Shown here: in pieces, positions 5,171 to 56,861 of the stretch
Position numbering within the stretch: the first letter of the stretch is position 1
Layout of the letters: each line of letters opens with the position of its first letter
DNA from: Candidatus Omnitrophota bacterium
Lineage (GTDB): Bacteria > Omnitrophota > Gorgyraeia > Zapsychrales > Zapsychraceae
NCBI GenBank assembly: GCA_015233115.1
Contig: JADFYJ010000002.1
Span: 38,016 to 102,015 of the forward strand
DNA: 64,000 bases
Reading direction: 5' to 3'
Position numbers and translations under genes: made by a program
The notes under the pieces: generated by a model
The model's input: the letters and a program-made list of their open reading frames with translations, nothing else
What the model was told of the DNA's origin: nothing
The model's database searches: none

Positions 5171-5398
5171 GTCACAAGGACACAAAGTCACAAGGTCACA
5201 AATAAAAATAAAAGTACAAAATAAAAAAACGACTGGTAAGCAGTTAACACCGAAGATAACTCAAACTGGTGATAAAATTTTGTTACATGTTTGACAAGTT
5301 ATGACTTTGCGTATATTTTTTTTGGCATTATTATTCGTTTTTTCCGAATCTTTTCTATCCTTTGTGACCTTGTGACCTTGTGACTTTGTGACTTTGTC
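5171..5398. repeat. IR-flanked intergenic element, family B (TIRs are tandem gtcacaaR octamers)
   Basis: Left arm ggtcacaaggacacaaagtcacaaggtcacaa. Right arm cctttgtgaccttgtgaccttgtgactttgtgactttgtc. About 160-bp AT-rich core. The right arm supplies the stop codon of the large REC-domain gene. Confidence 0.6.
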
Positions 5399-8300
5399 TA
5401 CGCTTTACTTCCAGCCTTATCATTCATCAGTTCCGAGAAGATCGGCAGGCTGGAAGGCGCTATGGGTTTGATATCAATTATATACGGACTTAACCCGTCA
5501 ATTTTGATGCTATTGATATCCTGCATTTCCACGGGTAAAGGCACACCATTGCCATCGCGTTTAATCTGCATATTTAACATAGCCGCGTTTAAGTCGATAC
5601 CACCGACGTCGTCTCTTTTTAATTGCGCGCTATCGGATTCATTTTTCTTTTGAACAAATAAAGCGGCTATAGGATCTACCGCGGCATAAATGGCATTAAT
5701 ACCATCCAATTTAGAAACTAAGCCATCAATTTTTGCTCGCGATACCGCCAATTTAACTTCATCCGTATATGCGTTAGCACTTATAATAATTGATTTCACG
5801 GCGTCCATTCCAGGAATTTTCCGTATTGATTCAATCATTTGAACGCCAGTTTTATTTTTCATGTTATAATCCGAAAAAAGCAATTCAGGTTTAAATGCGC
5901 CATCTGATATTATTTTTTCAGCCTCTTCTGGAGAGCTGGCAAGAACAACTTCATAGCCTCTATCTTTTAAAACCATCTCATACAATTCTCTGGTAAATTG
6001 ATTATCATCCACCACCAAAACCTTCATGGCGCGATCAGCAGCACCGGCAGCAGCTAATTTAGGGCCAATAAGCCATGGTGTTTTTGGAGCAGTTGTAGCT
6101 TTAATATATTTAAATGTCATTTCAGCAATAGCCATAAAAAATTTTACGTTTGAATCAGAATCGAGATTTTTACCTTCAGGCGAATCCAAACGTTTTTGAA
6201 TATTTCCGATTGAAATATAAGAACTTCCGCCTTGCATTATTAGAGCAGCCCTAATTTGCGAATCTGTAGCATCAGCTAAGGCCACTACGTTTCCAGTCTT
6301 GGCTGCTTCCGCCGCTACCATAGGTTTTAAATACTTATTCACTTCATCAACTAATGTTTTGACAGTTTCATCCTTGATCGGTGTGAATGCACCCTTTTTC
6401 CCCAGCATAGCCTGATCTTGCTCTAATAGCCTCACAATTTCTTCCACAACCATATACCCAAACAAAGTTAAATCTTCTGTATCCTCCGGGTTTTCCCCAT
6501 AATTAAAAGTTTTGTAATTAACTATAATTTTTTCTCCCTTATCCTTCGCTTCTCGTAATCTCTTGGCTACAGCGAGTACAGCTTGTTCTTGTTTTTCTTC
6601 AGCACTATTATAATCTAAACCTGCTATATGAATTTCAAATTCTACCTGGGACTCTAATATACCGCTAATCGCTTTCGGCGAACGCATAAGCACCTTAAAT
6701 GCCTCAGCAAGTTCCCCTTCTTTCAAAGGTGCGGCTGTTAGCATAGCATTATCATTAAAAATGCCAGCTTGTATAACCGGCCTAAGCAAATCAGTCCCTT
6801 CTACATCTGTTTTTCCTTTTGCGTCAGTTACTAATCCTGATATAACATTTCGTCCATTGGCACTTAAATCAAAAAATACTTCAACTTTCGGATGCTTTAA
6901 TAGAAAATTTATAAAAGCTCTTATCTCTCTTTCATTTTCTTTGTTTGCTCCATTATTAAGGGCCGTTTGTAATTCATTAATCAATTTTTTATTATCCTGA
7001 ACGCCCGCCATATGATTGACAAAATTATGACCTTCTGTTTTCATAAATCGAACCAGTGAAGATGCCGCCTTCTTGATATCTCTTCCCGGATTCCGGCCGG
7101 TCAGCCCTTCATAAAGAAAAAAGTTCATAGCAGAAAATAAAATCAGAACCGCTAAGATCCGGGTTGTTCGGTTAAAATTAATCCCCTTATCAAGAGCACG
7201 AATTATAAAATCATCATCTTTATTTTCATTTTTCTGATAAGTCTCGTTAATGTGTTGAGCAATTGCAGTCGATAAAAGCTGGGGGGAATTTAAAATTTGC
7301 TCAAAAGTATAATATTTATTCTTATTTTGCGCATCCTTGACAAACTTCCCCTCACTTTTTTTTGATTCTTGATCAATTGCCAAACATGCTCCAATAATCA
7401 TTCCATCTAAACTAAATAGTACTGTCCTCACTACTGCGAGAGGTTCTTCACTCAATTGTTTTCTTACTGATTCCCGCACTAGCTCAGGGTCATTCGTCTT
7501 CAAAATTTCTTCCAACATGGCGCGATCTGCCTCATTAGGTATGAGGGCATTCAACTCAGTTTGTATACGCGGTTCTTCACCTGATGATTCAAACATTTTT
7601 GAATAACGAGTGATTAATTCCAATCCATTTGGTTTTTGAGAAATTCTTGACCGCTGACGATCCAAACTAATACCGACTTCATCGATCGTTCTTTTTGTTC
7701 CATATATCTCCAGCAATTCTCTCTCTCGGGCAGTTAAGCTATCTTCTCTTTTTACTAATAAAGCATTGTCCATCTTACCTATAACCCCACCTGAAAAATA
7801 TTTTCTGGGGATCACCTGCTGACTGGTTGGGTCGTATTCTTCCTTGATATAGTCGTACACGCCTTTTTTAAAGGCTTCTAAATACTGTTCATAAATTTTC
7901 TGATTGGCTTCTTTGTCCGTTAAATCCACACCTTTGACTTTGGTTTTATCCGCGTAAATTTTGCCTAAAAGGCTTTGTTTTAAAGTACGTTTATACCAAG
8001 CGGCTAAGATCATGGACTGATAGATCTGGCGCAATAAGGCGAAATGTTCTCCGGAATTAACTTCTTTTTCCAGGGCCGGAATAATGATTTCCCTCACGAC
8101 TTGAGTGGTTACTGTGCTGGACTGATCAAGTTCAGATGCCTGCATTTGATTCGCGCTAATGGCTTCATTATTTTTGTTTTTCTGCAGGGCAACATAATCT
8201 TTGTCCAACATCACTTTTAAACTGCTGTCTACAATCCAGGCCACATTGTCTTTTTCATAGACCACAGCTTTTTGCGGGACAATCCACACCTTATTAAAGG

Positions 8301-8832
8301 TATTCATCGGCAGTTCAGTCACGCCGTATTTTTGAGCAGCTTCTTTATAAACTTTTTCCCAAAATTTTTTACCTAATTCATCTTCCGGGTACATTAAAGA
8401 CGCGGTTAATTGCTTAAGAATGTAATCCTGGCTTAAAAGATCGCGGCCCATTTCTGTCTGGCCGAAATCCTGCGCAATAATGCGGTTATTTTCATAGGGC
8501 GACAAGTTGACCCATTGGTTATTTTCAGGGACAGTTAAAGAAGCCAAGAAATATTTGACTAATTTTTTATATTCATCTTCCTGTATGGAACCGGTTAAAG
8601 GCTTATCTCCGGCTTCAATAAGGAATTTCATCTGCAAAGGATTTTTGGTGTCAATTTCAATACCGCGCACTAAAGCAGGATTAAATACAGCGGATGATTT
8701 GACCATAGTTCCAGCTGGAGGCATGAACATAGCAACCTGCGCCATAGCCCGGGACTGGAAACACGAAGTCCAACCAAAGGTTATAATAAGAAAACTACAA
8801 ATAAATTTGAATAACAAAGTTTTTTTATACAT
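5398..8832 (-). CDS. large (~1144 aa) signal-peptide/TM-anchored protein with C-terminal response-regulator receiver (REC) domain
   Basis: The track ORF extends to 9015. The likely start is MYKKTLLFKF at ~8832, preceded by GGGGG. N-terminal hydrophobic segment, ~900 aa without a motif I recognise, then KVLVVDDNQFTRELYE...LLFSDYNM...SIIISAN...KIDGLVSKL (REC). Confidence 0.5.
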   Translation of the reverse strand: MYKKTLLFKFICSFLIITFGWTSCFQSRAMAQVAMFMPPAGTMVKSSAVFNPALVRGIEIDTKNPLQMKFLIEAGDKPLTGSIQEDEYKKLVKYFLASLTVPENNQWVNLSPYENNRIIAQDFGQTEMGRDLLSQDYILKQLTASLMYPEDELGKKFWEKVYKEAAQKYGVTELPMNTFNKVWIVPQKAVVYEKDNVAWIVDSSLKVMLDKDYVALQKNKNNEAISANQMQASELDQSSTVTTQVVREIIIPALEKEVNSGEHFALLRQIYQSMILAAWYKRTLKQSLLGKIYADKTKVKGVDLTDKEANQKIYEQYLEAFKKGVYDYIKEEYDPTSQQVIPRKYFSGGVIGKMDNALLVKREDSLTARERELLEIYGTKRTIDEVGISLDRQRSRISQKPNGLELITRYSKMFESSGEEPRIQTELNALIPNEADRAMLEEILKTNDPELVRESVRKQLSEEPLAVVRTVLFSLDGMIIGACLAIDQESKKSEGKFVKDAQNKNKYYTFEQILNSPQLLSTAIAQHINETYQKNENKDDDFIIRALDKGINFNRTTRILAVLILFSAMNFFLYEGLTGRNPGRDIKKAASSLVRFMKTEGHNFVNHMAGVQDNKKLINELQTALNNGANKENEREIRAFINFLLKHPKVEVFFDLSANGRNVISGLVTDAKGKTDVEGTDLLRPVIQAGIFNDNAMLTAAPLKEGELAEAFKVLMRSPKAISGILESQVEFEIHIAGLDYNSAEEKQEQAVLAVAKRLREAKDKGEKIIVNYKTFNYGENPEDTEDLTLFGYMVVEEIVRLLEQDQAMLGKKGAFTPIKDETVKTLVDEVNKYLKPMVAAEAAKTGNVVALADATDSQIRAALIMQGGSSYISIGNIQKRLDSPEGKNLDSDSNVKFFMAIAEMTFKYIKATTAPKTPWLIGPKLAAAGAADRAMKVLVVDDNQFTRELYEMVLKDRGYEVVLASSPEEAEKIISDGAFKPELLFSDYNMKNKTGVQMIESIRKIPGMDAVKSIIISANAYTDEVKLAVSRAKIDGLVSKLDGINAIYAAVDPIAALFVQKKNESDSAQLKRDDVGGIDLNAAMLNMQIKRDGNGVPLPVEMQDINSIKIDGLSPYIIDIKPIAPSSLPIFSELMNDKAGSKA

Positions 8833-8983: not shown

Positions 8984-9030
8984 CTAAAAATAAAAAAGCC
9001 GCAGGTTGTGAACAATTATCCAACCTGCGG
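8984..9030 (-). terminator. rho-independent terminator downstream of the SET/speH-like operon
   Basis: Perfect 10-bp stem ccgcaggttg/caacctgcgg, followed on the minus strand by cttttttatttttag. Confidence 0.5.
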
Positions 9031-9054
9031 TTTGAATGACTCGTTGACTGATCC

Positions 9055-9510
9055 TTATCTCGCAAAAGCCGGAGCTAACGCTTCTTCTCGGCTGGATACG
9101 TATCCGCGGCAATTAGGCGCGCCACAGGAACAGTTGAACGGCTTAAACAGCACATCTTCTGTTTGTAGGTAATCCATGGTGATCAGTTCGCCCGGGTTAA
9201 TCGCCTGCACAGCAATGAATTGCCGTGTTTCCATGTTGCAGTACGTATTAGGATTACAACAATGCAAAACTTTACCCATAAAAAATGGGTCGTGCACATG
9301 TAAACCATTGCGATAACGCAAGGAATACTGAGTGATCTCAGTGACTAAAAACCCTGTAAACGCGAACACAATGTCGCCAGGCAGAAATGACTTTAAAGCC
9401 ATAACGCCGTTGCCGACACTGTCACCGATTTTTTGAATACGGAAATCTCCTGGTTTAGGCTCATAAGGAAATTCAGGTAATGAATCTGGATAGAATCGAT
9501 TTTTTATCAT
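9055..9510 (-). CDS. SET-domain protein (putative protein-lysine methyltransferase)
   Basis: GNGVMA (GxG). HCCNPNTYC matches the NHSCxPN motif. GELITMDY matches ELTFDY. Post-SET CSCGAPNCRG is present. Confidence 0.8.
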   Translation of the reverse strand: MIKNRFYPDSLPEFPYEPKPGDFRIQKIGDSVGNGVMALKSFLPGDIVFAFTGFLVTEITQYSLRYRNGLHVHDPFFMGKVLHCCNPNTYCNMETRQFIAVQAINPGELITMDYLQTEDVLFKPFNCSCGAPNCRGYVSSREEALAPAFAR

Positions 9511-9884
9511 CTTAATAGCACCTGGTAATTTGTGGTTGTTGGTCCAAAAGTTTTTTTCAAGAAGTCAACTACGGCTTCTTCCGAAAAAGTCTTGCAACTA
9601 AAGACATCCAGATACATATCGCCCGCCTGGTCATTGGTATGCATGGTGATAGCGCTGGTCTCGATTAATTGTACGCCTGAGATACCGGTTTGCACTCCTT
9701 TGCCAAAACGTTCGACAACAGGGTCACCAAAGGCAACCATATCAATCAATTTGACAAGTTTCGTTATCCAACCTGAAATAACTTTTTTGTCCAAAATATT
9801 GTCATTGCAGCCACGGGCGGTAATGATCAAATGTTTGCCATAATAAACAACCCCATCATATTTAATACATCTATATTCCTGCAT
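9507..9884 (-). CDS. S-adenosylmethionine decarboxylase proenzyme-like protein (SpeH/AdoMetDC family)
   Basis: GKHLIITARGCN, VQLIETSAITMHT and YLDVFSCKTF align with SpeH GRHLxAEFYxCD, ESHxxIHTWPE and DxFTCG. The canonical ES|H processing site is replaced by E-T-S. 4-nt overlap (ATGA) with the SET gene. Confidence 0.6.
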   Translation of the reverse strand: MQEYRCIKYDGVVYYGKHLIITARGCNDNILDKKVISGWITKLVKLIDMVAFGDPVVERFGKGVQTGISGVQLIETSAITMHTNDQAGDMYLDVFSCKTFSEEAVVDFLKKTFGPTTTNYQVLLR

Positions 9885-10097
9885 TAGTTTTATTCATCCT
9901 CCATAACTAAAGTTAATTTTATATCGCAAATCCCTATTCATGCGTGTAAGGCATAAACAGAAAGTACTTTCTCATCTCCCTTTAAATATTTTAGCGTTAA
10001 ATACCTAACTAATTTACAACATTCGGATTATTAGTTGAGGTCCTTATCGATAAACCCTCCTTTTATTAGGTTAACCAAACCCGCAATCTGGGTCAAT

Positions 10098-11151: not shown

Positions 11152-11227
11152 GGCGGGGTAGCTCAGCTGGTAGAGCATACGGTTCATACCCGTAGCGTCG
11201 AGAGTTCGATCCTCTCCCCCGCCACCA
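11152..11227 (+). tRNA. tRNA with CAT anticodon (Met elongator or Ile2-lysidine type), CCA encoded
   Basis: 76-nt cloverleaf. Acceptor ggcgggg/ccccgcc. D-arm gctcagctggtagagc. Anticodon stem tacgg/ccgta with loop ttCATac. T-arm gagagttcgatcctctc. G1:C72 argues against initiator tRNA. Confidence 0.85.
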
Positions 11228-21627: not shown

Positions 21628-22408
21628 CTCTTAGCGCCTCTGCGATTTGGATAAATTGCCCTAAGTTCACATCTTCGGCCCTATCCTGTGGATCAATTCC
21701 TAAACCCTTAAAAATCTGCTCAAGCGTTCTTTTATCAGCAAAAATATTTAATGAATTAAGAATTGTTTTCCGGCGCTGTTGAAACGCGGTTCGGATGACG
21801 TGAAAGAGCTGTTTTTCATCCGCAGTTTTCCAGGGAAGATTAGAATACAAGTCATACTTGATAAAACATGATTGCACTTTCGGCATCGGCTGAAACGCCG
21901 ATCGGCCTATTTGAAACAAAATATCCGGCTTCCCATAATATTGAACGAAACAACTGAACGATCCATAGGCTTTCGTGTCAGGAACAGCACATATCCTCTG
22001 TCCATACTCCCATTGCACCATCATAAAAAACTGAGTAAATTTTAAACGATATCCGATAACTTTTTCAATAATGGGTGTGGCGATATTATACGGCAAGTTG
22101 CTGATAATCTTGATGCCATCCGGCAATTGCTCAAACGGAAACTTCAGGATATCCGCGTCGTAAACCGTCACGTTACGATCTTTAAATTGCATTTTTAAAT
22201 GATCCGCCAATACCCGATCCGTTTCCACAGCAAAAACCTGTTTGACCCGCTTCGCAATCCCCTCTGTGATCGCACCCTTCCCCGGCCCGATTTCTAAAAC
22301 AATATCGTCACTCTTCAATTCACAAACATCAATAATCTTTTGAATAATATTCCGGTTGATTAAAAAATTTTGCCCCAGAGATTTTCGTGGTTTATGGGCA
22401 GGAATCAT
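21620..22408 (-). CDS. rsmA: 16S rRNA (adenine1518/1519-N6)-dimethyltransferase
   Basis: SLGQNFLINRNIIQKI and LEIGPGKGAITE. KsgA family. Confidence 0.9.
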   Translation of the reverse strand: MIPAHKPRKSLGQNFLINRNIIQKIIDVCELKSDDIVLEIGPGKGAITEGIAKRVKQVFAVETDRVLADHLKMQFKDRNVTVYDADILKFPFEQLPDGIKIISNLPYNIATPIIEKVIGYRLKFTQFFMMVQWEYGQRICAVPDTKAYGSFSCFVQYYGKPDILFQIGRSAFQPMPKVQSCFIKYDLYSNLPWKTADEKQLFHVIRTAFQQRRKTILNSLNIFADKRTLEQIFKGLGIDPQDRAEDVNLGQFIQIAEALRVI

Positions 22409-23349
22409 GAGGATAATTCAAATGCCAGTTTAATTGCTTCACACATTGACGCCGGATCCGCCATATTTTTCCCGGCAATATCAAATGCGGTTCCGTGCGC
22501 GGTTGATGTCCGGATAAACGGCAGACCAATCGTCAAATTAACCAGATTAGGAAAAAATAAAGCTTTAATCGGACCTAAACCTTGATCATGGTACAAAGAA
22601 ATAATCGCGTCATATTTTTTCGCGTTATGAGGCACAAACAACGTATCCGCGGCAAACGGACCGCAAATTTTCATTTTTTGTTTTTGAGCCGCTAAGATAG
22701 CCGGCAAAACCACCTTAATATCTTCCTTGCCAATCCGTCCGCCTTCACCCGCATGCGGATTCAAACCGCAAACCGCGATTTGCGGATCTTTAATCTTAAA
22801 CATACTCTTAAGAATATGATGAGTCATGGCAATGGTCCCGCCTAAATTTTTCCTGGTTACTGCCGTCGGCACTTGTGACAAAGGAATATGCCGCGTCGCA
22901 ATAATCACCCGCCATGTTCCAGCTACAAAAAGCATTTCCACATTCTTCACGCCAAAAGCTTCCGCTAAATATTCCGTATGTCCATGGAATCCGGGTAGAC
23001 TAAAAGAAACCCATTCTTTACTCAAGGGCCCAGTCACCAGCGCATCAATTTTTTTGGCTTGAATCAATTCAACACTGGTTTTTAAATATTCCAACGATGC
23101 TTGACCACTCTCCAAAGATGGCTTCCCCAATTTCCATTTATTTTTAGGCAATAAATTCACGTCTAAAAAAGTACAATTTTTCAAATTGCGGATCGGAAAA
23201 TGTTCCATCACAAAATAATCACCGATAATAACAAAATGGCCAAGCCGCTGAATATCCGGCCGGCTCAAAGCTTGGGCGGTTATCTCCGGGCCAACGCCGC
23301 AGGGATCGCCTAACGTGATTCCGATAATTTTATTTTTTGATTTCAACAT
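22405..23349 (-). CDS. pdxA: 4-hydroxythreonine-4-phosphate dehydrogenase
   Basis: IGITLGDPCGVGPEI and PdxA family sequence throughout. Classic surA-pdxA-ksgA arrangement. Confidence 0.85.
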   Translation of the reverse strand: MLKSKNKIIGITLGDPCGVGPEITAQALSRPDIQRLGHFVIIGDYFVMEHFPIRNLKNCTFLDVNLLPKNKWKLGKPSLESGQASLEYLKTSVELIQAKKIDALVTGPLSKEWVSFSLPGFHGHTEYLAEAFGVKNVEMLFVAGTWRVIIATRHIPLSQVPTAVTRKNLGGTIAMTHHILKSMFKIKDPQIAVCGLNPHAGEGGRIGKEDIKVVLPAILAAQKQKMKICGPFAADTLFVPHNAKKYDAIISLYHDQGLGPIKALFFPNLVNLTIGLPFIRTSTAHGTAFDIAGKNMADPASMCEAIKLAFELSS

Positions 23350-24291: not shown

Positions 24292-24450
24292 ACGTATATA
24301 GTATGTGGTATGTGGTATGTGGTATATCGTAAAAACGAGAATTAATAATTTTGATCAAACGACAAAAAAAACGTATTTTATTCCTAATAAATTCTTAATT
24401 TGTCTCACCAATCGTTTTTCACCACATACGACATACCACATACTACATGC
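24292..24450. repeat. IR-flanked element, family D (TIRs are tandem gtatgtR heptamers), empty copy
   Basis: Left arm gtatgtggtatgtggtatgtggtat. Right arm accacatacgacataccacatactacatg. About 95-bp AT-rich core. The right arm supplies the mfd stop and last codon. Confidence 0.6.
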
Positions 24451-26341
24451 CATTTTTATTAATTGTAACGTTTTTCTTCAAGTTTTCCACCGATTCTTTT
24501 AATAATCGGCAGTACAAATCAAACCCTATGCTGGCAATATATCCATGCTGTTCCTGTCCCAAAAGATTCCCCGCTCCCCTCAATTGCATATCTTCAAACG
24601 CAATCTTAAACCCTGCTCCTAATTCACTGTATTTTTCGATCGCGTCAATTCTCGCTTGGCTTTCCTGGCTTAATGATTTATAGGCCGGGATCAAAAAATA
24701 AGCATAGGCTTCGCGAGTGAATCTTCCAACGCGCCCGCGTAATTGATGCAAATCAGCCAAGCCAAAGTGATCAGCCCGGTTAATAATTAGCGTATTAGCA
24801 TTAGGAATATCTATTCCTGATTCGATAATAGTGGTCGAAACCAAAACATCAATCGAGCCATCTAAAAATTGCAGCATAATTTTTTCCAAATCACGCGCGG
24901 ACATTTGCCCATGCCCAATGGCTATCCTCGCTTGCGGGACCAAACGTTTGATGATTGCTCCTATGTGCGCAATATCTTCCACCCGGTTATGAATAAAAAA
25001 CATCTGCCCATGCCGTTTTAATTCCCTTTCAATAGCTTCTTTAATTAAATCTTCGTCAAATTCTCGGACAAACGTTTTAACCGGTAGACGTTTTTGCGGC
25101 GGCGTTGTGATCACAGACATATCTTTTGCCCCGACTAAAGACATATGCAAGGTTCGCGGAATAGGAGTCGCGCTTAATGTCAACACATCAGCCAAAAGGC
25201 GGAAATGTTTGAGCCGTTCTTTAGCCTTAACTCCAAAACGCTGTTCCTCATCAATAATAATCAATCCCAAATCTTTAAACGCGATATCTTTGGACAAAAG
25301 CCGGTGCGTCCCAATGACGACGTCAACCTGGCCATCCGCTAATTCAATAACCGTTTTTTGCTGTTCAGCTTTAGTCCTAAAACGGCTCAACATAGCCACG
25401 CGAACTGGATATTTTTCCATGCGTTTGACAAAATTATAATAATGCTGTTCCGCTAAAATCGTGGTTGGAACCAAAATGGCGACTTGTTTGTGGTCCATCA
25501 CGGCTTTAAAAACCGCCCGCATCGCTACTTCGGTTTTTCCAAAACCGACATCCCCGCACAGAAGCCGGTCCATGGGCAGTTCAGACTCCATATCTTTTTT
25601 AACATCCGTTATGGCTTTTTTTTGATCATCCGTCTCTTCAAAAGGAAAACCTTTTTCAAAATCTTTTTGCCATGGAGTATCAAGAGAAAATGAATGTCCA
25701 CGCAAACTGGCACGCATAGCTTGAGTATGCAATAATTCCGCCGCCATTCTCTGCAAACGTTTTTGAATCTGTTGTTTAAGCCTTTTCCATTCCGGACTGC
25801 CGAGTTTATAAATCCGCGGCGGCCGTTTGTTAAAACTTAAGTATTTTTGAATCAGATGAATATCATGTTTGGGGACGAATAATTTATCTCCTCCCTGATA
25901 CTCAATAACAAAATGTTCTTTAACTTCATCACGGATCTCAATGGTTTGCAAACCGATGAAGCGGCCAATACCGTGATAATTATGGACAACATAATCGCCT
26001 TTTTGAATATCGACAAAATTATTAAGAGGAACGTCTTCAGAAAAAACCGCATTTTTGTTTTCAGGTTTATGAGGCAGGATAATCGCGATCTTGTGTTCCC
26101 AGATCACCTTACCGGAACGGATATTGACACTGGCAATTTTTTGGATCTTCTCATCATCAAAATCAACTCGGATAGGACCGTCAAAATTGACGGGATATAT
26201 TTGCAGAATTTCACCGTGGTGGGCATACTCGCCTTCCTTTAAGGCGTGCCGCACATGCTGGTAATGCATGGCCGCCAAATTGTTGAGGACAATATCCAGG
26301 GCAATCGTCTGTCCAACGAAAAGTTCGAGTGATTGGAACAT
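24443..26341 (-). CDS. mfd: transcription-repair coupling factor, short form lacking UvrB-homology module
   Basis: CarD/TRCF RNAP-interaction domain (GDYVVHNYHGIGRF). SF2 helicase motifs (GDVGFGKTEVAMRA, DEEQRFGV). C-terminal TRCF domain. 632 aa, with only 44 nt to the upstream gene. Confidence 0.8.
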   Translation of the reverse strand: MFQSLELFVGQTIALDIVLNNLAAMHYQHVRHALKEGEYAHHGEILQIYPVNFDGPIRVDFDDEKIQKIASVNIRSGKVIWEHKIAIILPHKPENKNAVFSEDVPLNNFVDIQKGDYVVHNYHGIGRFIGLQTIEIRDEVKEHFVIEYQGGDKLFVPKHDIHLIQKYLSFNKRPPRIYKLGSPEWKRLKQQIQKRLQRMAAELLHTQAMRASLRGHSFSLDTPWQKDFEKGFPFEETDDQKKAITDVKKDMESELPMDRLLCGDVGFGKTEVAMRAVFKAVMDHKQVAILVPTTILAEQHYYNFVKRMEKYPVRVAMLSRFRTKAEQQKTVIELADGQVDVVIGTHRLLSKDIAFKDLGLIIIDEEQRFGVKAKERLKHFRLLADVLTLSATPIPRTLHMSLVGAKDMSVITTPPQKRLPVKTFVREFDEDLIKEAIERELKRHGQMFFIHNRVEDIAHIGAIIKRLVPQARIAIGHGQMSARDLEKIMLQFLDGSIDVLVSTTIIESGIDIPNANTLIINRADHFGLADLHQLRGRVGRFTREAYAYFLIPAYKSLSQESQARIDAIEKYSELGAGFKIAFEDMQLRGAGNLLGQEQHGYIASIGFDLYCRLLKESVENLKKNVTINKNGM

Positions 26342-47916: not shown

Positions 47917-48351
47917 TTAATGAGTACCCGCAAAGAAACCAGTCCCTGAACGGGTGATTCCCGTAGCTGTGGCAGTTAAAACAACTGTCCCTGTTTGACC
48001 ATTTTCAACTGTCGTATCGCGAGTGGCCGTAATGGTTACATTTTGCGCTGTATCAAGATTAGCTACTGCATACGTCCAATGTCTCCCTGCCACCCCATTT
48101 ACATTACCAATATCTAAGTTGGTCCCCCAGCTGGTGCTGGTCATACAGACAGCGGCCGTATTCCCCGTTATCACACACCGATGAAGCGAATTGCGGAGAC
48201 CATCAAAAGTTGCAAAAGCCTCTGCTGTACGGGATCTTTCGACAGTATTAAATAAATTCGGTAAAGCTAAACTGGCCAAAACACCGATAATAATAACTAC
48301 AATAATCAATTCTAATAGTGTAAATCCATTAATTTTTTTCATAGTTGTCAT
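47917..48351 (-). CDS. pilA: type IVa major pilin, copy B
   Basis: NG|FTLLELIIVVIIIGVLASLALPNL. About 90% identical to the adjacent copy. Confidence 0.75.
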   Translation of the reverse strand: MTTMKKINGFTLLELIIVVIIIGVLASLALPNLFNTVERSRTAEAFATFDGLRNSLHRCVITGNTAAVCMTSTSWGTNLDIGNVNGVAGRHWTYAVANLDTAQNVTITATRDTTVENGQTGTVVLTATATGITRSGTGFFAGTH

Positions 48352-48355
48352 TTTT

Positions 48356-48392
48356 TAAAAAGGGGAGAGCATGACCCTCCCCTCATAATTAA
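48356..48392 (-). terminator. rho-independent terminator between the two pilA copies
   Basis: Minus strand reads ggggagggtcatgctctcccc followed by ttttttaaaa. Confidence 0.5.
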
Positions 48393-48402
48393 CAAAATAG
48401 TT

Positions 48403-48834
48403 TTAATGAGTACCAGAAAAGAAACCAGTCCCTGAACGGGTGATGCCCGTAGCTGTGGCAGTTAAAACAACTGTCCCTGCTTGACCATTTTCAACTGTGG
48501 TATCGCGAGTAGCTGTAATAGTTACATTCTGCGCTGTATCAAGATTAGCGGCTGCATACGTCCAATGTTTCCCAGCTACAGTATTAACGTCGCCAATATC
48601 TAAGTTGGTTGCCCAGCTAGTGCTGGTCATACAGAGAGCAGCCGTATTCCCCGTCGTCACACACCGATTAAGAGAACTACGGAGACCATCAAAAGTCGCA
48701 AAAGCCTCTGCTGTACGGGACCTTTCTACAGTATTAAACAAATTCGGCAAAGCTAAACTGGCCAAAACACCAATAATAATAACTACAATAATCAATTCCA
48801 ACAATGTAAACCCTTTTTTATTCCTCATTTTCAT
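48403..48834 (-). CDS. pilA: type IVa major pilin, copy A (promoter-proximal)
   Basis: KG|FTLLELIIVVIIIGVLASLALPNL. 143 aa. Confidence 0.75.
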   Translation of the reverse strand: MKMRNKKGFTLLELIIVVIIIGVLASLALPNLFNTVERSRTAEAFATFDGLRSSLNRCVTTGNTAALCMTSTSWATNLDIGDVNTVAGKHWTYAAANLDTAQNVTITATRDTTVENGQAGTVVLTATATGITRSGTGFFSGTH

Positions 48835-48930
48835 TTAAAACTCCTTTCTTCTGTTTGACAGCGTTCATTCCTATTAAAACTATAACATATTCCTTTTAGA
48901 CAGTCAAAATAGTATTCTTATTAAATATGT

Positions 48931-50163
48931 TTACCCTCCTGTTGACATTTTAAACAAAGGCAAAAACATTGCCACTACAATGGTCCCTATGACTGCACCC
49001 ATAAAAACAATCATTACGGGTTCTATCATCGTTGAAACCCTTTTAATATATACTTCAACCAATTCTTGATAATATTTAGAAACATGTTTCAACATCTTAC
49101 TTAACTCACCTGTCTCTTCCCCTACACTAATAAGCTGAACACACATGGCAGGAAAAAAACCACTTTTTTCCATCGGTGTCACTATGAGTTCGCCCTTTTT
49201 TACTCCTTCTTTTATGCTCCTCACAATTTTCGAACAGGTAATATTATCCACTAATTTTTCGGCAATATCCAATGCCGCTAAAATAGGCACCCCCGCTTCG
49301 ATTAAAATAGCCATTTGCCCAGAAAATCGTTCCACGACTATGAGCCGAAATACTTGACCCACACTAGGAACTTTAAATAAAAAATGTTCAAACCCTTCTT
49401 TCCCATGCGGAGTTTTAATAAATTGAAGAAATAAATATCCTGCCACCCCGATACCCGCGACAATAAACATAAAATAATTCCTGACAAAAGCGAATATGGA
49501 TAACAAAATGATCGTAATCATGGGCAGTTTTATATTCATAGATTTAAATATAGACTCAAAACGTGGTCCAACAAACAAAGCGAAAAAGGCAATTGCTCCG
49601 CACGCGACACAAAATAATAAAATGGGATATATGAGACTGGATACAATGGTCGTCCTAAACCCATTTTGCTGATCCATGTAGAAAGTCAATTTATTCAAAA
49701 CAGTCGGCAAAGAGCCTGAAGCTTCTCCAACCTCAACCAAACTCACCCAAAATTGATTAAACGCCTTAGGATGCTTGGCCAAGGCTTGGCTTAAAGAAAG
49801 ACCTTTTTCCACATCTTCTTTAATCTTAGCGACAATCTTGCTCAAACGTTCACTTTCCACTTGGCCACTGATGACTTCCAAACTGCGCATGAGCGATACC
49901 CCAGCCTCGAGCATGGTGGCTAACTGACGGGCAAAAACAATAAGATCCTGAAGTTTAATGACTTTATGTTTGTGTTTGACTGTAACCCGATGAAGCGGCG
50001 CGCCTCTTTTCTGGCCTGCTTGCAAAGAGAATTCCGTAATACTAATAACAAAATATCCCTGCCGCTGTAACAAATCAGACGCAGTAATACGATCTGAAGC
50101 ATCAACAAAGTTCTCCACAGATCTACCATTTTTATCTTTAGCAATAAAACTAAAACGAGGCAA
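48931..50163 (-). CDS. pilC: type IV pilus assembly platform protein PilC (GspF family)
   Basis: MPRFSFIAKDKNGRSVE start. Two GspF repeats, 3 TM. Confidence 0.9.
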   Translation of the reverse strand: MPRFSFIAKDKNGRSVENFVDASDRITASDLLQRQGYFVISITEFSLQAGQKRGAPLHRVTVKHKHKVIKLQDLIVFARQLATMLEAGVSLMRSLEVISGQVESERLSKIVAKIKEDVEKGLSLSQALAKHPKAFNQFWVSLVEVGEASGSLPTVLNKLTFYMDQQNGFRTTIVSSLIYPILLFCVACGAIAFFALFVGPRFESIFKSMNIKLPMITIILLSIFAFVRNYFMFIVAGIGVAGYLFLQFIKTPHGKEGFEHFLFKVPSVGQVFRLIVVERFSGQMAILIEAGVPILAALDIAEKLVDNITCSKIVRSIKEGVKKGELIVTPMEKSGFFPAMCVQLISVGEETGELSKMLKHVSKYYQELVEVYIKRVSTMIEPVMIVFMGAVIGTIVVAMFLPLFKMSTGG

Positions 50164-50215
50164 TTTTAACTCCTGCTTAATGATTAAATTTTTCTTTGTG
50201 ACCCTGTGACTTTGC

Positions 50216-51958
50216 TTAGTCTACACTGACACAAATATTACAGACTTCTTCATAACTGGTGATGCCTTTTTCAACTAATTTTAAACCCGAATCAAATAAA
50301 GTGTCCATACCATTTTTTCTAGCCGCGTCTTTTATGTCTTGATATCCCGCGCTTTTCGCGATCAGGGAACGGATTTCTTGGTTAACTTCCAAAACTTCGC
50401 CAATGACAATACGACCTTTATAACCAGTATGATTGCATAATTGACATCCTTTGGCCTTATAAATCAAATCACTTTTAAATTTAATGTTCCCGTGGGTTAA
50501 CACATCCGGCTCATACGCCTCTTTACAGTTTTGACACAACCGTTTAGCCAAACGTTGAGCTAAGATCATAACCAATGACGGGGTCAGCAAATAATTAGGC
50601 ACTCCGATATCGATCAAACGGGTAATGGCTGACGGCGCGTCATTCGTATGCAAGGTACTCATAACAAGGTGCCCGGTTAAAGCCGCGCGCACGCAAATCT
50701 GTGCGGTTTCCAAATCGCGGGTTTCCCCTACCATCATAATATCCGGATCTTGCCGGAGAAACGCTTTAAGCGCAGTCGCGAATGTTAATCCGATATCGGG
50801 TTTTACGTTCACCTGATTAATCCCGTCTAATTTATATTCCACGGGATCTTCGACCGTGACTATATTCTTCCGCGGATCGCGGGTTTCATTCACCGCCGCG
50901 TAAAGTGTAGTTGACTTACCGCTTCCGGTCGGCCCCGTCACAAAAAATAATCCGAACGGCATTTTTAAAGACTTTTTCATCAAATCAACTTGCTTAGTAT
51001 CAAAACCTAACCCGGATAAAGCTAAAGGCACAGCGCCTTTATCCAAAATACGCATAACAACTTTTTCACCCCAAATCGTCGGAATAGTTGAAACTCTGAG
51101 ATCAACAGTGCGATCTTCCAATTTAGCAGAAATAGCTCCGTCTTGCGGTAGACGTTTTTCCGCGATGTCCATTTTCGAAAGAATCTTAATCCTGGAAACA
51201 ATCGGCAACAATAAATGCGGAGCAGGCGGCGGCAAATCAACTAAACTGCCATCAATACGATACCTTAATTTAATCTTGCTTTCAAAAGGTTCAATATGAA
51301 TATCACTGGCTTTTGAATCAATGGCTTGACGGATTATAAGATCTACCAGTTTAATAACCGGGGCTTCTCCGGCTTTGGCAATAATCTTATCCATGCTCAA
51401 TTCAGCCGCCATTGACTTGGGCATAACGGATGAATTATCTTCCGATTCCTCGGAATAAGAGTTTTCAACCGCCCGGTCCAGCATGCTCTGATCTGAAGCA
51501 TAACCCGAAACGCTGGGAAAAAGTTCGCTAATCGCTTTTTGTATCGACGTTTTAGTCGCAATAACTAAATTTAGTTCACATCCAGTCATGCGCCGTAAAT
51601 TATCAATCAAAAGCAGGTCTAACGGATCAGCCACAGCGCAGGTTAAAGACTTAAGATGGCGGGATAAAGGAATAATATCATTCTTACGGGCAAAAGTTTC
51701 CGAAATCAGTTTTTTTAAATCTTCCCGCTGATCTTCCTCAGGCAAAAGCAATTGATTGTTATCCGAAGAATAAAACGGTATCCCCAGTTGAGAACCAATG
51801 GCTTGGGTCATATTCTCTTCCGTCACAAAACCCAAACGGACCAGAATTTCCCCGATCCTGCCTTTCTCAACTTTCTGCACCTGAATGGCTTTATCCAATT
51901 GATCTTTAACGATAAAGCCTTGATTAATTAAAATCTCACCTAATTTTAACCGCGTCAT
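50216..51958 (-). CDS. pilB: type IV pilus assembly ATPase PilB (GspE family) with N-terminal MshEN/GspII_E domain
   Basis: Walker A GPTGSGKSTT, Asp/His boxes, tetracysteine CQNC..CQLC. N-terminal LGEILINQGFIVKDQLDKAIQ domain. Confidence 0.9.
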   Translation of the reverse strand: MTRLKLGEILINQGFIVKDQLDKAIQVQKVEKGRIGEILVRLGFVTEENMTQAIGSQLGIPFYSSDNNQLLLPEEDQREDLKKLISETFARKNDIIPLSRHLKSLTCAVADPLDLLLIDNLRRMTGCELNLVIATKTSIQKAISELFPSVSGYASDQSMLDRAVENSYSEESEDNSSVMPKSMAAELSMDKIIAKAGEAPVIKLVDLIIRQAIDSKASDIHIEPFESKIKLRYRIDGSLVDLPPPAPHLLLPIVSRIKILSKMDIAEKRLPQDGAISAKLEDRTVDLRVSTIPTIWGEKVVMRILDKGAVPLALSGLGFDTKQVDLMKKSLKMPFGLFFVTGPTGSGKSTTLYAAVNETRDPRKNIVTVEDPVEYKLDGINQVNVKPDIGLTFATALKAFLRQDPDIMMVGETRDLETAQICVRAALTGHLVMSTLHTNDAPSAITRLIDIGVPNYLLTPSLVMILAQRLAKRLCQNCKEAYEPDVLTHGNIKFKSDLIYKAKGCQLCNHTGYKGRIVIGEVLEVNQEIRSLIAKSAGYQDIKDAARKNGMDTLFDSGLKLVEKGITSYEEVCNICVSVD

Positions 51959-53523
51959 TTTTGGTCGCCTAGCTGTTCAATTGAAGCCAAATCACGATTA
52001 ATATTGTCTAACCGGGAAACAGGAATATCCTGTTCCCGCACTAATTGATCATAGCCATTCGCTTTCGCTAATTGTGGAGATTCGCGAATAATGTGCGGCG
52101 TTAAAAAAACCACCAGCTCTCTATCTGTCACTTTTTTATCCTTATGCCTGAAGGCCGCGCCTATAATAGGAATCTTACTTAAAACAGGCAAACTATTATT
52201 GGTAACAGATTCATCTTTTCGAAGCAATCCCCCTAAAACAATAGTATCCCCATCTTTAACCCTTAAAGTGGATTTTGTGCCACGCTCTTCCGGATCTTTA
52301 AAAGATACAGTTAAAGGATTTTTCGGATCTGAGGAATCAGTGATAGTATCAATTTTAGTGTCTACTACTCTCGGCCTGATCGCCATAGTCACTTCATTGG
52401 TTTCCAAATTAATTTGCGGAGTTACTTTTAAAGAAACTCCCGTCTCATAACGTTCAGCAGTGGTAGCACTGCTCCCTCCTGTTACAGATGCCGTACTGCT
52501 GGAAACCCCAATGGCTTCCTGCGTGGTGATTTTTATTTCAGCCATTTCATTATTCAGTGTAATAATGCGCGGCCTAGCCAAACTTTTGGTGTCCGATTTT
52601 GATCGTAAAAGATTTAACGTCGTCGGAACACTATTCCCTAAGGTCAACGTACCCTCATTCCCTTGCAAAAGTTGGCCCACATTCGCCGTTGGAGTCAAAA
52701 AAAACGGAAACCGGATACTATTAGGAAGCGAAGGCAGACCCGCCGAAACCAAAGGATTACCCCAATTCACACCCAATGAATCAGATACTTGTTTCGAAAT
52801 ATCCAATAATTCCGCTTCTATTAAAACTTCCGGAACAGACACATCCAACTTAGCAATGGCCGCATCAATGATCGGCATTTGCGAAGCAATATCAGAGATA
52901 ATGATGCTATTAGTCCGCGGATCTTGCGCGACAGTTCCATCTTTAGTCAGCATAGATTTCACGATCATAATGATATCACTATTTTCTTTAGCTCCAGCCA
53001 AATTGTCTGTACTCCCGCCACTTGAGCTTGCAGATGAAGATGCGGATGAAGATCCGGATGAACTCGTTTCATTTTGATCGATCGAATACGTTGATTTTAT
53101 TTTGGATGATGGTAATGTCGCGTATTTCAAAGTATATACTTTAGTGACAACCTCTTTTTCCGGTTTAGGAATATTTTTTACAATAAAAATATTACTTCCG
53201 GATTTTAACTCATAGGTCAATCCGTTCGCAGCCAAAATCCGCTCTAATGCCTGCTCAACTGGAACTTTATCCAAATAAATATCAACATTCTTATCCGCGA
53301 TCGCTGAATCCGCGATAAAATTTAATCCTGACTGCTGTGAAAAAATCTTCAGCACATCATTTAAGCTGGCTTTTTTAAAATCCAAAGATATGGTTTTACT
53401 TTGATCCACATCCATTAAGCGCTTGATATCATTATCAATTTCATAATAAGACGCTTGACACAAATATGGCAAACACCCGATCAACAGGGTCACTGCCAAA
53501 ATAATAAATTTTTTATTTATCAT
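51955..53523 (-). CDS. pilQ: type IV pilus secretin PilQ
   Basis: C-terminal secretin signature VLGGLLRKDESVTNNSLPVLSKIPIIGAAF..VFLTPHII. Ser-rich linker. AMIN-like N-terminus. Confidence 0.85.
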   Translation of the reverse strand: MINKKFIILAVTLLIGCLPYLCQASYYEIDNDIKRLMDVDQSKTISLDFKKASLNDVLKIFSQQSGLNFIADSAIADKNVDIYLDKVPVEQALERILAANGLTYELKSGSNIFIVKNIPKPEKEVVTKVYTLKYATLPSSKIKSTYSIDQNETSSSGSSSASSSASSSGGSTDNLAGAKENSDIIMIVKSMLTKDGTVAQDPRTNSIIISDIASQMPIIDAAIAKLDVSVPEVLIEAELLDISKQVSDSLGVNWGNPLVSAGLPSLPNSIRFPFFLTPTANVGQLLQGNEGTLTLGNSVPTTLNLLRSKSDTKSLARPRIITLNNEMAEIKITTQEAIGVSSSTASVTGGSSATTAERYETGVSLKVTPQINLETNEVTMAIRPRVVDTKIDTITDSSDPKNPLTVSFKDPEERGTKSTLRVKDGDTIVLGGLLRKDESVTNNSLPVLSKIPIIGAAFRHKDKKVTDRELVVFLTPHIIRESPQLAKANGYDQLVREQDIPVSRLDNINRDLASIEQLGDQK

Positions 53524-53535
53524 AAAACACTCCTT

Positions 53536-54030
53536 TTATGGTTTAAGTGTGTAAGTCTCGCCTTGAAAAGAAACAGCCACGCCTTCTTTTGTTATCGATA
53601 GAATCTTAATAATTAAATCTTCCGAAGTCGATTGTTCAGAACCTTCTGGTATTCCCACATTATTTTTTGGGGCAGACGTCGATATCGTTGACGTATAGGG
53701 TAACACATCGCCCACATTATATACTTTATTGTCAATAATAGCTTGAGGCCGATCTGAATTCCAAACTAAACCTTTCACCACAAAAGGTGGCAAAGAAAGC
53801 TTCACCGGAGGAGGTGGAGGCGGAGTCGGTTCCGGAGCAGGTGTTGGCTCCGGATTCAGGTTCGGGTTCGGCGTTGGAGCCAGATTCGGTTCAGGCGCGA
53901 GAATTGGTTTCTCTGCTATAGGCATTTGAACCTCAAAAGGATCTTTTTCAAATTCAATTTCTTCAGCCCAAGAAATAACCGGCCAAATTAAAATCATTAC
54001 TGAAATTATAAAAATAATTTTCTTATTCAT
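53536..54030 (-). CDS. PilP-like pilus assembly lipoprotein (putative)
   Basis: Signal peptide, Pro-rich linker, C-terminal beta domain. Assignment by position between the PilO-like gene and pilQ. Confidence 0.4.
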   Translation of the reverse strand: MNKKIIFIISVMILIWPVISWAEEIEFEKDPFEVQMPIAEKPILAPEPNLAPTPNPNLNPEPTPAPEPTPPPPPPVKLSLPPFVVKGLVWNSDRPQAIIDNKVYNVGDVLPYTSTISTSAPKNNVGIPEGSEQSTSEDLIIKILSITKEGVAVSFQGETYTLKP

Positions 54031-54622
54031 TGTGTAACGTGATTGTCCTTAAAGAAACGGTTGCCCGGATATAAGGCTCTGCCCCTTTAGAATCCCGTCC
54101 TTGATCATAATTAACCGGAGTACAACTCATTCTATCTACAAGAACGGTATATTCTGTTTTTTCTAACGCTTTAATAAATTCACCTAAATTTTTATAACGG
54201 GCAGCGGTTAATTCCAACTGCATCGAATCTGTATAATAATAAGTGCTATCATTTTTTTGCCACGGAGAAAACGTGGTAATATCAATTCCATTTTTCAAAG
54301 CCAGACCAGAAACAAGACTGGTTAAAAGATCAGTATTACCGATTTTGTGAAAATTCTTTTTAATATCATCTCGTTTTTTTTCAATCACCTTTAGCTTATC
54401 TAATAAATCTTTCTTTTTTTCACCTTCCGTAATTAACGATCGAGTCCCTTGTATTTCCTGTTTAGGCCCCGAACTTGAATTCAGACAAAAAAACAACCCC
54501 ACCACAATGATAGCAACATTGATCAAAATATCCGGACGCCGTCTCAAATATTCTTTGACCATTGCCGGATCAATGTTCTTCAAATCATCCATGGAAACAT
54601 TTTTTAAACTGTTTAGATCCAT
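54023..54622 (-). CDS. PilO-like protein (putative)
   Basis: Single TM, coiled coil, C-terminal alpha/beta domain. Positional call. Confidence 0.45.
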   Translation of the reverse strand: MDLNSLKNVSMDDLKNIDPAMVKEYLRRRPDILINVAIIVVGLFFCLNSSSGPKQEIQGTRSLITEGEKKKDLLDKLKVIEKKRDDIKKNFHKIGNTDLLTSLVSGLALKNGIDITTFSPWQKNDSTYYYTDSMQLELTAARYKNLGEFIKALEKTEYTVLVDRMSCTPVNYDQGRDSKGAEPYIRATVSLRTITLHNE

Positions 54623-54626
54623 AAAA

Positions 54627-56180: not shown

Positions 56181-56422
56181 ACTCTCCCCGAATCTTTTAT
56201 ACACGGAACACAACACAAATTTCAGTGGCTGATTTTTAGTTTTTGGTTTTTAGAAAAAAATATATTTGATTAGCAACAACAACCAACCAACGACCAACAA
56301 CCAGTATTACTGTATTGTGCCCCAAGTTTTAAGATTGCATATGTATCTTATGTAAAAAAAAACAATAAGTCTATAATATTCTAAAAAATTTTTTGCTTTG
56401 TGCAAATGAATCCTCCTACTCA

Positions 56423-56851: not shown

Positions 56852-56861
56852 GGCTTTACCC

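Follow-up and report, generated by a model that had tools for sequence, protein, structure and literature searches.

A BurB-like SET protein and an AdoMetDC-fold protein encoded as a pair in Omnitrophota and other bacteria: a proposed two-gene route from methionine to DMSP-amine

The methylation route to dimethylsulfoniopropionate (DMSP) in Burkholderia thailandensis begins with BurB, a SET enzyme that S-methylates free L-methionine to S-methylmethionine (SMM) and is specific for methionine (PMC7496086, PMC12542666); SMM is next decarboxylated by BurI, and the remaining steps fall to BurD and BurE. Here we describe a pair of genes that may encode a variant of its first two steps, a BurB-like SET protein and a protein of the S-adenosylmethionine decarboxylase (AdoMetDC) fold, in a stretch of 64,000 nucleotides from a Candidatus Omnitrophota bacterium (assembly GCA_015233115.1, contig JADFYJ010000002.1, positions 38,016 to 102,015), hereafter the window. 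For the Burkholderia pathway in vivo, burB and burI alone are essential in B. thailandensis, and the loss of burD or burE is tolerated. BurB holds both the carboxylate and the amino group of methionine, most of its contacts to this substrate being made by the main chain (PMC12542666, PMC7496086), and refuses analogues without the amino-acid moiety such as methylmercaptopropionate (MMPA) and 4-methylthio-2-hydroxybutyrate (MTHB). According to a review of June 2026, BurB has been reported exclusively from B. thailandensis, and burB occurs in a narrow range of taxa.

The steps proposed here, from methionine to SMM and from SMM to 3-dimethylsulfoniopropylamine (DMSP-amine), are also the first two of the Streptomyces mobaraensis pathway (MmtN-SMMDC-DMSPAAT-DMSPADH), which, as far as its description in PMC9135737 and PMC12542666 goes, was reconstituted in vitro by Liao & Seebeck 2019. 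The enzymes of that pathway are, however, unrelated to those of the window, being a class I methyltransferase and a pyridoxal phosphate (PLP)-dependent enzyme of the 'diaminopimelate decarboxylase' type, and the cluster also encodes the last two steps. The S. mobaraensis methionine S-methyltransferase (MSMT) was considered as a second SET-type enzyme of this activity and rejected, since it is the class I MmtN; BurB thus stands alone as the characterised SET member. The S. mobaraensis SMM decarboxylase (SMMDC) is listed as a PLP-dependent diaminopimelate decarboxylase, and from the 48% identity of BurI to this enzyme we infer that BurI is a PLP decarboxylase of the alanine racemase (AR) fold, the supplement of PMC7496086 naming no family. 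One dinoflagellate is known to make DMSP by way of methionine decarboxylation.

The decarboxylase of the window, in contrast to BurI, has the pyruvoyl AdoMetDC fold, and its closest sequence relative is SpeDC, represented by RWX43081 of Ca. Electrothrix aarhusiensis. Members of the SpeDC group self-process and decarboxylate L-ornithine, with cleavage between Thr and Ser (T-S, in QLIETS) as the diagnostic motif of the clade and Gln, Thr, Phe and Tyr as diagnostic residues in the central region (Li et al. 2023, PMC10407285). We propose that the two genes form a module in which the SET enzyme would convert methionine to SMM and the pyruvoyl enzyme would convert SMM to DMSP-amine, a variant of the BurB-BurI route to which we give a probability of roughly 0.57 on the grounds of sequence, structural models and analogy. 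The more general model, in which the SET protein, as a methyltransferase of small molecules, and the gene 1 product, as an active decarboxylase of amino acids, would catalyse consecutive steps, is highly probable. The substrates of both enzymes and the product of the module are those that we infer from folds, conserved residues and the behaviour of characterised relatives.

The gene pair and its distribution

Both genes lie on the minus strand, and their products are identical to MBF0478123.1 (gene 1) and MBF0478122.1 (gene 2) of the Candidatus Omnitrophota metagenome-assembled genome. The locus comprises:

9507-9884, minus strand: gene 1, 125 residues, AdoMetDC-fold proenzyme, predicted pyruvoyl-dependent decarboxylase with SMM as proposed substrate
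9055-9510, minus strand: gene 2, 151 residues, BurB-like SET-domain S-adenosylmethionine (SAM)-dependent methyltransferase, proposed to S-methylate methionine to SMM
9507-9510, minus strand: ATGA stop/start overlap, holding the gene 1 stop and the gene 2 start (direct sequence reading)
9654-9662, minus strand: codons E75-T76-S77 with the predicted self-cleavage site between T76 and S77, the Ser77 codon at 9654-9656
9897-9902, minus strand: ribosome-binding site GGAGGA, 13 nucleotides 5' of the gene 1 ATG (direct sequence reading)
9885-10097, minus strand: intergenic leader 5' of gene 1, 213 nucleotides
8987-9031, minus strand: rho-independent terminator of the gene pair, hairpin CCGCAGGUUGG...CAACCUGCGG followed by a U-run

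A preliminary description of this stretch had reported two translationally coupled genes with an ATGA overlap and a rho-independent terminator of their own. The open reading frames (ORFs) and the sequence bear this out, the overlap as read from the letters indicating translational coupling. The terminator, whose hairpin loop exceeds the loop limit of a simple terminator scan, was found by folding against shuffles: the hairpin at 9031-8999 has a stem of 10-12 bp followed by UUUUUUAUUUUU and a folding energy of -20 kcal/mol (z = -3.36), with one of 200 shuffles folding equally well.

The same description had taken the two genes for a fixed pair whose joint occurrence suggested a joint function, and a gene-neighbourhood search agrees. 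A genome scan with the decarboxylase, using one genome per species, returned at least 574 relatives, the best 80 loci of which were examined; a SET gene lies directly downstream on the same strand in 70 of them, well above what chance would give, and the ten loci without a SET gene are SpeDC-type relatives. Among the 70 SET-linked loci the two genes share a 4-nucleotide overlap in 34 and overlap or abut in 42. These loci span at least nine phyla, including Omnitrophota, Planctomycetota, Chloroflexota, Spirochaetota, Alpha- and Gammaproteobacteria, Myxococcota, Acidobacteriota and Firmicutes, with cultured carriers in the Planctomycetota (Aeoliella, Botrimarina, Bythopirellula) and the Firmicutes (Alicyclobacillus pomorum, Paenibacillus cremeus and Paenibacillus contaminans). 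For 102 distinct pairs, the pairwise identities of one protein correlate with those of the other in a mirror-tree comparison at r = 0.85, against a permuted maximum of 0.09, a degree of co-evolution which argues that the pair is inherited or transferred as a unit. The order is reversed, with the SET gene before the decarboxylase gene, in L128, L129, L173 and L176; cultured Brevibacillus laterosporus B9 and a plasmid of Rhizobium bangladeshense carry the pair in this form. Clustering of all ORFs of the 80 loci revealed no third conserved gene beyond the pair, the next commonest cluster occurring in 13 loci and being unrelated. In the protein database, clustered at 90% identity, the SET family accounts for about 600 clusters and the search set of the decarboxylase for about 740, and an exhaustive search of representatives yielded 227 from the SET family at E <= 1e-10. 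A search of IMG/VR for phage carriage gave no relative of the SET protein.

Seen from the SET side, through look-ups and a SET-centred metagenome scan of 80 loci, the partner is exchangeable. An AdoMetDC-like gene adjoins the SET gene in 43 of the 80 loci. Elsewhere the SET neighbour is a PLP decarboxylase, either of the aspartate aminotransferase (AAT) fold (OKR_DC_1; L089, L098-L100, L110, L111 and L113) or of the AR fold (Orn_Arg_deC_N with Orn_DAP_Arg_deC; L154, L156, L165, L169 and, from Sphingomonas paeninsulae, L177), and in L170 the SET gene is followed by one for a class-III aminotransferase. In a neighbour-joining tree of 138 SET sequences, which is distance-based and without support values, a small BurB clade that includes AR-linked members and L170 stands apart from one large clade that is mostly AdoMetDC-linked, and since an OKR-linked group and one AR-linked group are nested within this large clade, the partner has been swapped within it. 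The two activities are also found fused, with the AR-fold decarboxylase preceding the SET domain in L171 (3780-5474) and P0272 and following it in P0295 and P0273, and a nonribosomal peptide synthetase (NRPS) of 4765 residues (P0259) ends in a BurB-like SET domain. One SET family is thus accompanied by any of three unrelated decarboxylase folds, one of which is tied to SMM by experiment, and this is the strongest argument that the AdoMetDC-like protein would carry out the same step.

The two proteins

The product of gene 2 matches Pfam SET at 24.1 bits (cut-off 22.4), and its motifs VGNGV, LHCCNPN, GELITMDY and CSCGAPNC make it a complete SET domain with a post-SET cysteine cluster, as the preliminary description had said. 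On direct reading, its 151 residues contain nothing beyond the SET domain itself, neither a signal sequence nor a further targeting domain being present. In a phmmer search of all Protein Data Bank (PDB) sequences BurB (9l4t) is matched at E = 4.9e-24 and 88.4 bits in a gapless alignment of 128 residues, whereas the next SET proteins, histone methyltransferases, reach 21.5 bits (E ~2e-3). The AlphaFold2 (AF2) model, with a predicted local distance difference test score (pLDDT) of 90.9, finds BurB-SMM-SAM (9l4v) as its first Foldseek match, with template modelling (TM) scores of 0.85/0.80 and E = 9e-15, the next SET structures having a TM of about 0.64 or less. Of the SAM and methionine contacts of BurB, some are kept in gene 2 and others are changed; those kept include the SAM-contacting adenine histidine (H93 to H83), the tyrosine of the DY motif (Y124 to Y114), V130 (V120) and R133 (K123). 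The BurB loop TEDVLM, the main chain of which binds the methionine carboxylate, reads TEDVLF in gene 2, and the Cys4 zinc site (C85, C127, C129 and C134, that is, the core cysteine and CxCx4C) is invariant in the family, BurB included. On sequence and model, gene 2 is predicted to encode a small-molecule methyltransferase and is not histone-like. The idea of a histone or nucleoid-protein target, which the preliminary description drew from known bacterial SET proteins, fares poorly for this reason, BurB being the closest characterised relative by far (88 against 21 bits; TM 0.85 against about 0.64), and the fusions to PLP decarboxylases and an NRPS speak against it as well.

Gene 1 encodes a protein that scores 65 bits against Pfam AdoMet_dc (cut-off 25) and misses the curated AdoMetDC equivalog model TIGR03330 (47.7 bits, cut-off 75.65). 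Its AF2 model, built on 19 homologues, has a pLDDT of 92.7, and the best PDB match by Foldseek is Thermotoga maritima SpeD (TM 0.79-0.84, root-mean-square deviation 1.9 A, 21% identity), with 1tlu, 1vr7 and 2iii as top matches (TM 0.75-0.84). The processing region reads I-E-T-S-A-I-T-M-H-T-N-D. Residues S63 (the serine that becomes the pyruvoyl group), H68 and C83 of T. maritima SpeD align with Ser77, His82 and Cys97. T76, S77, H82 and C97 are 100% conserved among 100 non-redundant SET-linked relatives. What the preliminary description had called an AdoMetDC-family protein with an altered E-T-S-A processing site indeed has the fold and the motif and is not a canonical SpeH, but the reading of 'altered' as non-catalytic, and with it the idea of a non-catalytic SAM-binding partner, finds no support: E-T-S is not a defect, because the serine is kept, the motif is normal in proven SpeDC enzymes, and Ser, His and Cys are invariant. 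Judged by these residues, the gene 1 clade looks catalytically competent.

The comparison with the class 1b SpeD/SpeH enzymes, represented by T. maritima 1tlu, shows the same fold, the same self-processing Ser/His/Cys triad and, if the proposal is right, a sulfonium amino-acid substrate in both cases. The class 1b enzymes differ from gene 1, however, in sequence (21-28% identity), in having an aminopropyltransferase partner, in reaching the TIGR03330 cut-off and in the motif that follows the catalytic histidine. The HTWPE of true AdoMetDCs becomes HTNDQ in gene 1, T69-W70-P71-E72 of the T. maritima enzyme aligning with T83-N84-D85-Q86; the proline that is invariant in bona fide AdoMetDCs would be P71 of T. 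maritima, and N84 and D85 are invariant in the gene 1 clade. No sign of a bona fide SpeH beside speE was seen in the window: TIGR03330 is missed, and neither speE nor any other polyamine-family gene occurs among the 50 Pfam-scanned ORFs (of 61 of at least 120 residues) in the 64-kb window.

SpeDC is closer, having in common with gene 1 the QLIETS and YLDVFSCK motifs, Asp85, and the Gln, Thr and Tyr of the diagnostic set. The gene 1 clade retains three of the four SpeDC diagnostic residues (Q72, T76 and Y91), and the place of the fourth, Phe, is taken by Thr83; at this position Thr is found in 99% of the SET-linked members and Phe in 10/10 SET-less relatives, so that the HFSD of SpeDC reads HTND in gene 1. 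Six further positions are changed specifically in the clade (SET-linked/SpeDC relatives: Y15/W, R59/H, G61/A, G63/H, E65/A and N84/S). At three otherwise conserved positions the window protein itself departs from its clade, with W39 where 97% have F, Q65 where 93% have E and G88 where 97% have R. The signature QLIETSAI...YLDxFSCK is also found in the closest SET-less relatives, L071-L080, among which L079 (Ca. Electrothrix aarhusensis) fits the published description of RWX43081, a proven ornithine decarboxylase, and keeps QLIETS. The genomic settings of the two groups differ too. SpeDC genes lie in polyamine gene clusters, with carboxy(nor)spermidine decarboxylase and dehydrogenase (CASDC/CASDH), speE and hss; the SET-less L072-L073, L075-L077 and L079-L080 are directly upstream of CASDC/CASDH-like genes, and among the 80 genome loci the CASDC- and CASDH-like clusters (5 and 17) are confined to the SET-less L072-L080. 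Members of the gene 1 clade, in contrast, never adjoin CASDC/CASDH or speE, and neither speE nor other polyamine genes appear in the conserved neighbour clusters or the commonest immediate-neighbour families of the 70 SET-linked loci. By its sequence, the gene 1 clade is sister to the SpeDC ornithine decarboxylases and distinct from them, with an altered substrate-facing signature.

A putative pathway and its alternatives

In the proposed pathway the SET enzyme would bind free L-methionine and then SAM, and S-methyl transfer would yield SMM and S-adenosylhomocysteine. The proenzyme encoded by gene 1 would cleave itself between T76 and S77 into chains of 76 and 49 residues, Ser77 becoming the N-terminal pyruvoyl group of the latter. 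SMM would form a Schiff base with the pyruvoyl group and lose CO2, and reprotonation through Cys97 and His82 would release DMSP-amine. The pyruvoyl enzyme would thus do the job of the PLP enzymes BurI and SMMDC as an ornithine-decarboxylase-like protein whose specificity has shifted to a sulfonium amino acid. Being nearly isosteric with ornithine and cationic in its side chain, SMM would be a chemically plausible substrate for a descendant of an ornithine decarboxylase; candidates for recognition of the sulfonium are Asp85, which is invariant and common to SpeDC, and the clade-specific Tyr15. The likeness to BurB-BurI lies in a SET methyltransferase encoded beside a decarboxylase and in homologous SET proteins (34-41% identity). 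Unlike the Burkholderia pair, the module has the decarboxylase first, is translationally coupled and occurs in many phyla, and it is accompanied neither by an aminotransferase or dehydrogenase of the burD/burE type nor by NRPS-polyketide synthase (PKS) genes like those of the bur/malleicyprol cluster. As no such aminotransferase or aldehyde dehydrogenase is linked to the pair, three fates of DMSP-amine are conceivable: it may be the end product, it may be modified, in line with the GNAT or N-methyltransferase genes nearby in some lineages, or it may be converted to DMSP by unlinked housekeeping enzymes, which can finish the route, given that B. thailandensis tolerates the loss of burD or burE. 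The GNAT genes of Alphaproteobacteria and the GntF-like genes of Chloroflexota beside the pair hint that the amine may be the working product in some lineages.

Several points weigh against this reading. BurB, the sole characterised SET-type methionine S-methyltransferase, is just 34-48% identical to these proteins, and a number of its contacts are changed in gene 2 (S88 to M78, R42 to V32, H72 to Y62, H138 to S128 and R70 to T60). An aminotransferase and aldehyde dehydrogenase for the conversion of DMSP-amine to DMSP, or NRPS-PKS genes, were found neither at the window locus nor at the 70 loci. A methionine-specific regulator or riboswitch was not found upstream either: an Rfam search of the window leader (9885-10097) matched no family, and in seven further loci, five of them from Firmicutes, no methionine/SAM riboswitch or leader RNA was found 5' of the pair. 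All three partner folds yield decarboxylases of ornithine, lysine or arginine, so that a basic amino acid is a possible substrate, and one locus, L169, provides the sole polyamine context seen near any SET locus. A phage SpeD homolog (Sinorhizobium phage phiN3) clusters with the ornithine decarboxylase clade and yet is a true AdoMetDC, which means that activity is unreadable from clade alone.

The main alternative is N-methylation by the SET enzyme, with free ornithine, lysine or 2,4-diaminobutyrate, or the amines of these, as acceptor; the decarboxylase would then be of the ornithine type and the product an N-methylated diamine. SET domains are ancestrally lysine N-methyltransferases, gene 1 is sister to proven ornithine decarboxylases with three of four diagnostic residues and Asp85 retained, the alternative partners come from ornithine/lysine/arginine decarboxylase folds, L169 lies near CASDC/CASDH genes, and amine-modifying neighbours (GNAT, the GntF-like N-methyltransferase) occur occasionally. 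The fold is nonetheless no argument for ornithine, as the proven SMM decarboxylases themselves have the 'diaminopimelate/ornithine decarboxylase' fold. BurB, the only characterised close relative, is methionine-specific; polyamine genes were not found around the 70 AdoMetDC-linked loci, whereas the SET-less sisters sit within polyamine operons; and the Phe diagnostic of ornithine decarboxylases is replaced in 99% of members along with the six other changed positions. We regard N-methylation as unlikely on balance. A reversal of the two steps would give an identical end product, the pyruvoyl enzyme decarboxylating methionine to 3-methylthiopropylamine and the SET enzyme then S-methylating the amine to DMSP-amine; it would accord with the position of the decarboxylase at the head of the operon and has a precedent in the dinoflagellate route. 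This order is very unlikely, given that the BurB loop which binds the carboxylate and amino group of methionine is conserved here, that BurB refuses MMPA and MTHB, that the ancestry of the decarboxylase, with Asp85 kept, points to cationic side chains while methionine is neutral, and that gene order is inverted in the four loci named above.

Chemistry of SAM or decarboxylated SAM (dcSAM), suggested in the preliminary description, would require gene 1 to encode a true AdoMetDC or else a SAM-binding subunit, without catalysis of its own, that serves the SET methyltransferase. The AdoMetDC fold, the NCBI name (S-adenosylmethionine decarboxylase) and the genuine AdoMetDC activity of the phage homolog in the ornithine decarboxylase-like clade can be cited for it. 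The invariance of the catalytic Ser, His and Cys, however, argues that gene 1 is no dead subunit, and a true AdoMetDC is made very improbable by the missed TIGR03330 cut-off (47.7 against 75.65), by HTND in place of HTWPE with its invariant Pro, by the lack of linkage to speE and by the PLP amino-acid decarboxylases, for which SAM is not a substrate, that replace gene 1 beside the same SET clade. The phiM12/phiN3 homolog moreover falls outside the gene 1 clade, with 35% identity, D-S at the cleavage site, an HFCD motif and an upstream ORF that is not SET. Some bacterial SET proteins methylate proteins, and the Pfam SET match and the NCBI name 'protein-lysine N-methyltransferase' would agree with lysine methylation of a protein target, whether from the nucleoid, from a host or of another kind, the decarboxylase perhaps included. 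Such a role is most improbable: the likeness to histone methyltransferases is marginal (E ~2e-3, TM ~0.6), the 151 residues hold neither a secretion signal nor an extra targeting domain, the partner may be any of three unrelated decarboxylase folds, which rules out a specific protein-protein substrate relationship, and the NRPS fusion points to amino-acid chemistry. Conversion of methionine through SMM to DMSP-amine is thus the reading that we prefer.

Neighbouring genes and significance

Immediate neighbours of the pair are scattered, a Pfam census finding GNAT in 7/134, CN_hydrolase in 5/134 and NNMT/PNMT/TEMT-type methyltransferases in 4-5/134; in Firmicutes they are housekeeping genes. In the Chloroflexota loci L010-L012 and L052, an NNMT/PNMT/TEMT-family methyltransferase gene lies directly 5' of the pair on the same strand, as it does 5' of the SET gene in L104/L105; the Chloroflexota protein passes the NCBIfam cut-off for the GntF N-methyltransferase (121 against 60 bits), which suggests further methylation of the amine or a thioether product. 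Alphaproteobacterial pairs are flanked by a divergent GNAT gene in L081 and L083-L085, and by GNAT with CN_hydrolase (a GNAT-nitrilase fusion) in L017, L021, L039, L054 and L066, and these neighbours may N-acetylate the amine product. Weak hints to methionine come from MsrA-like genes within 10 kb in seven loci and a MetH fragment adjoining one locus. The reversed pair L173, on plasmid p7 of Rhizobium bangladeshense (47949-60377), adjoins an asparagine-synthase-related gene in a stretch rich in phage-like genes (RuvC, ribonucleotide reductase, ParB). A neighbour of 2606 residues in L064, considered as an NRPS, was rejected as an S-layer protein.

Several SET loci stand outside the two-gene pattern. 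Two SET subclades have no adjoining decarboxylase (L140, L141, L115, L109 and L143; L145, L151, L161 and L162), so that any partner they have would be encoded at another place in the genome; some decarboxylase-less SET loci adjoin a gene for isocitrate/isopropylmalate dehydrogenase, and two proteins of about 1450 residues (P0241, P0243) contain 7-8 SET-like repeats. The CASDC- and CASDH-like genes of L169 (8031-10390, minus strand) lie 1.3 kb downstream of the pair of SET and AR-fold decarboxylase genes, on the opposite strand. A complete bur-like array was found on plasmid NZ_CP106953.1 of Eleftheria terrae, the teixobactin producer (L174, 199676-212053), comprising genes for a type I PKS, a SET protein, a TauD dioxygenase, an aminotransferase, an aminobutyraldehyde dehydrogenase and a thioester-reductase protein, and it is a candidate for a DMSP-derived natural-product cluster outside Burkholderia.

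Among the 50 window ORFs scanned with Pfam, those recognised are all ordinary chromosomal genes, among them those for transketolase, RadC, TsaD, GatA/B, KsgA, PdxA, SurA, SecDF, his genes, AlaRS, RecA/RecX, type IV pilus genes and UvrA. The PdxA gene (22405-23349, minus strand) belongs to PLP biosynthesis, and its presence in this Omnitrophota genome bears on why a pyruvoyl rather than a PLP decarboxylase might serve. Directly downstream of the pair, 5398-8832 (minus strand) encodes a protein of 1144 residues in which Pfam recognises a response-regulator receiver (residues 938-1052) as the sole domain and matches nothing in the large N-terminal part. An Mfd-like protein (24443-26341, minus strand) has UvrB_inter, CarD_TRCF_RID, DEAD and Helicase_C domains in 632 residues, about half the usual Mfd length, and may be truncated or split. 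The only tRNA gene of the window, tRNA-Met (CAT) at 11152-11227 on the plus strand, lies 1.3 kb upstream of the pair, probably by coincidence.

In an incomplete literature collection, no report was found in which an AdoMetDC homolog is connected with SMM, with DMSP-amine or with a SET protein as partner. Compared with the known methionine-methylation route, the module would be novel in the fold of its decarboxylase, in a minimal architecture of two genes and in a distribution that is unexpectedly wide, and it is present in many phyla without known production of such sulfonium compounds. It is possible, though we advance this tentatively, that the BurB-like SET protein and an AdoMetDC-derived pyruvoyl SMM decarboxylase constitute a widespread and unrecognised source of sulfonium compounds, many of the carriers being non-marine or anoxic. 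Its product would be DMSP-amine, the N-acetyl or N-methyl derivatives of this amine (as new dicationic solutes or polyamine mimics), or DMSP made by housekeeping enzymes. If so, the pyruvoyl AdoMetDC family, which already includes arginine and ornithine decarboxylases, would gain a specialisation from adenosyl-sulfonium to dimethyl-sulfonium and, with a sulfonium amino acid other than SAM, a third substrate class for its neofunctionalised members, and the module would be a clean example of one pathway step served by three unrelated decarboxylase folds. The view of burB-type DMSP genes as confined to Burkholderia would be overturned. DMSP and related compounds play a major part in the global sulfur cycle and in the formation of climate-active gas, DMSP-amine is the immediate precursor of DMSP, and surveys of producers use few marker genes; hundreds of lineages missed by these surveys would, if the proposal is true, be able to make the sulfonium precursor.

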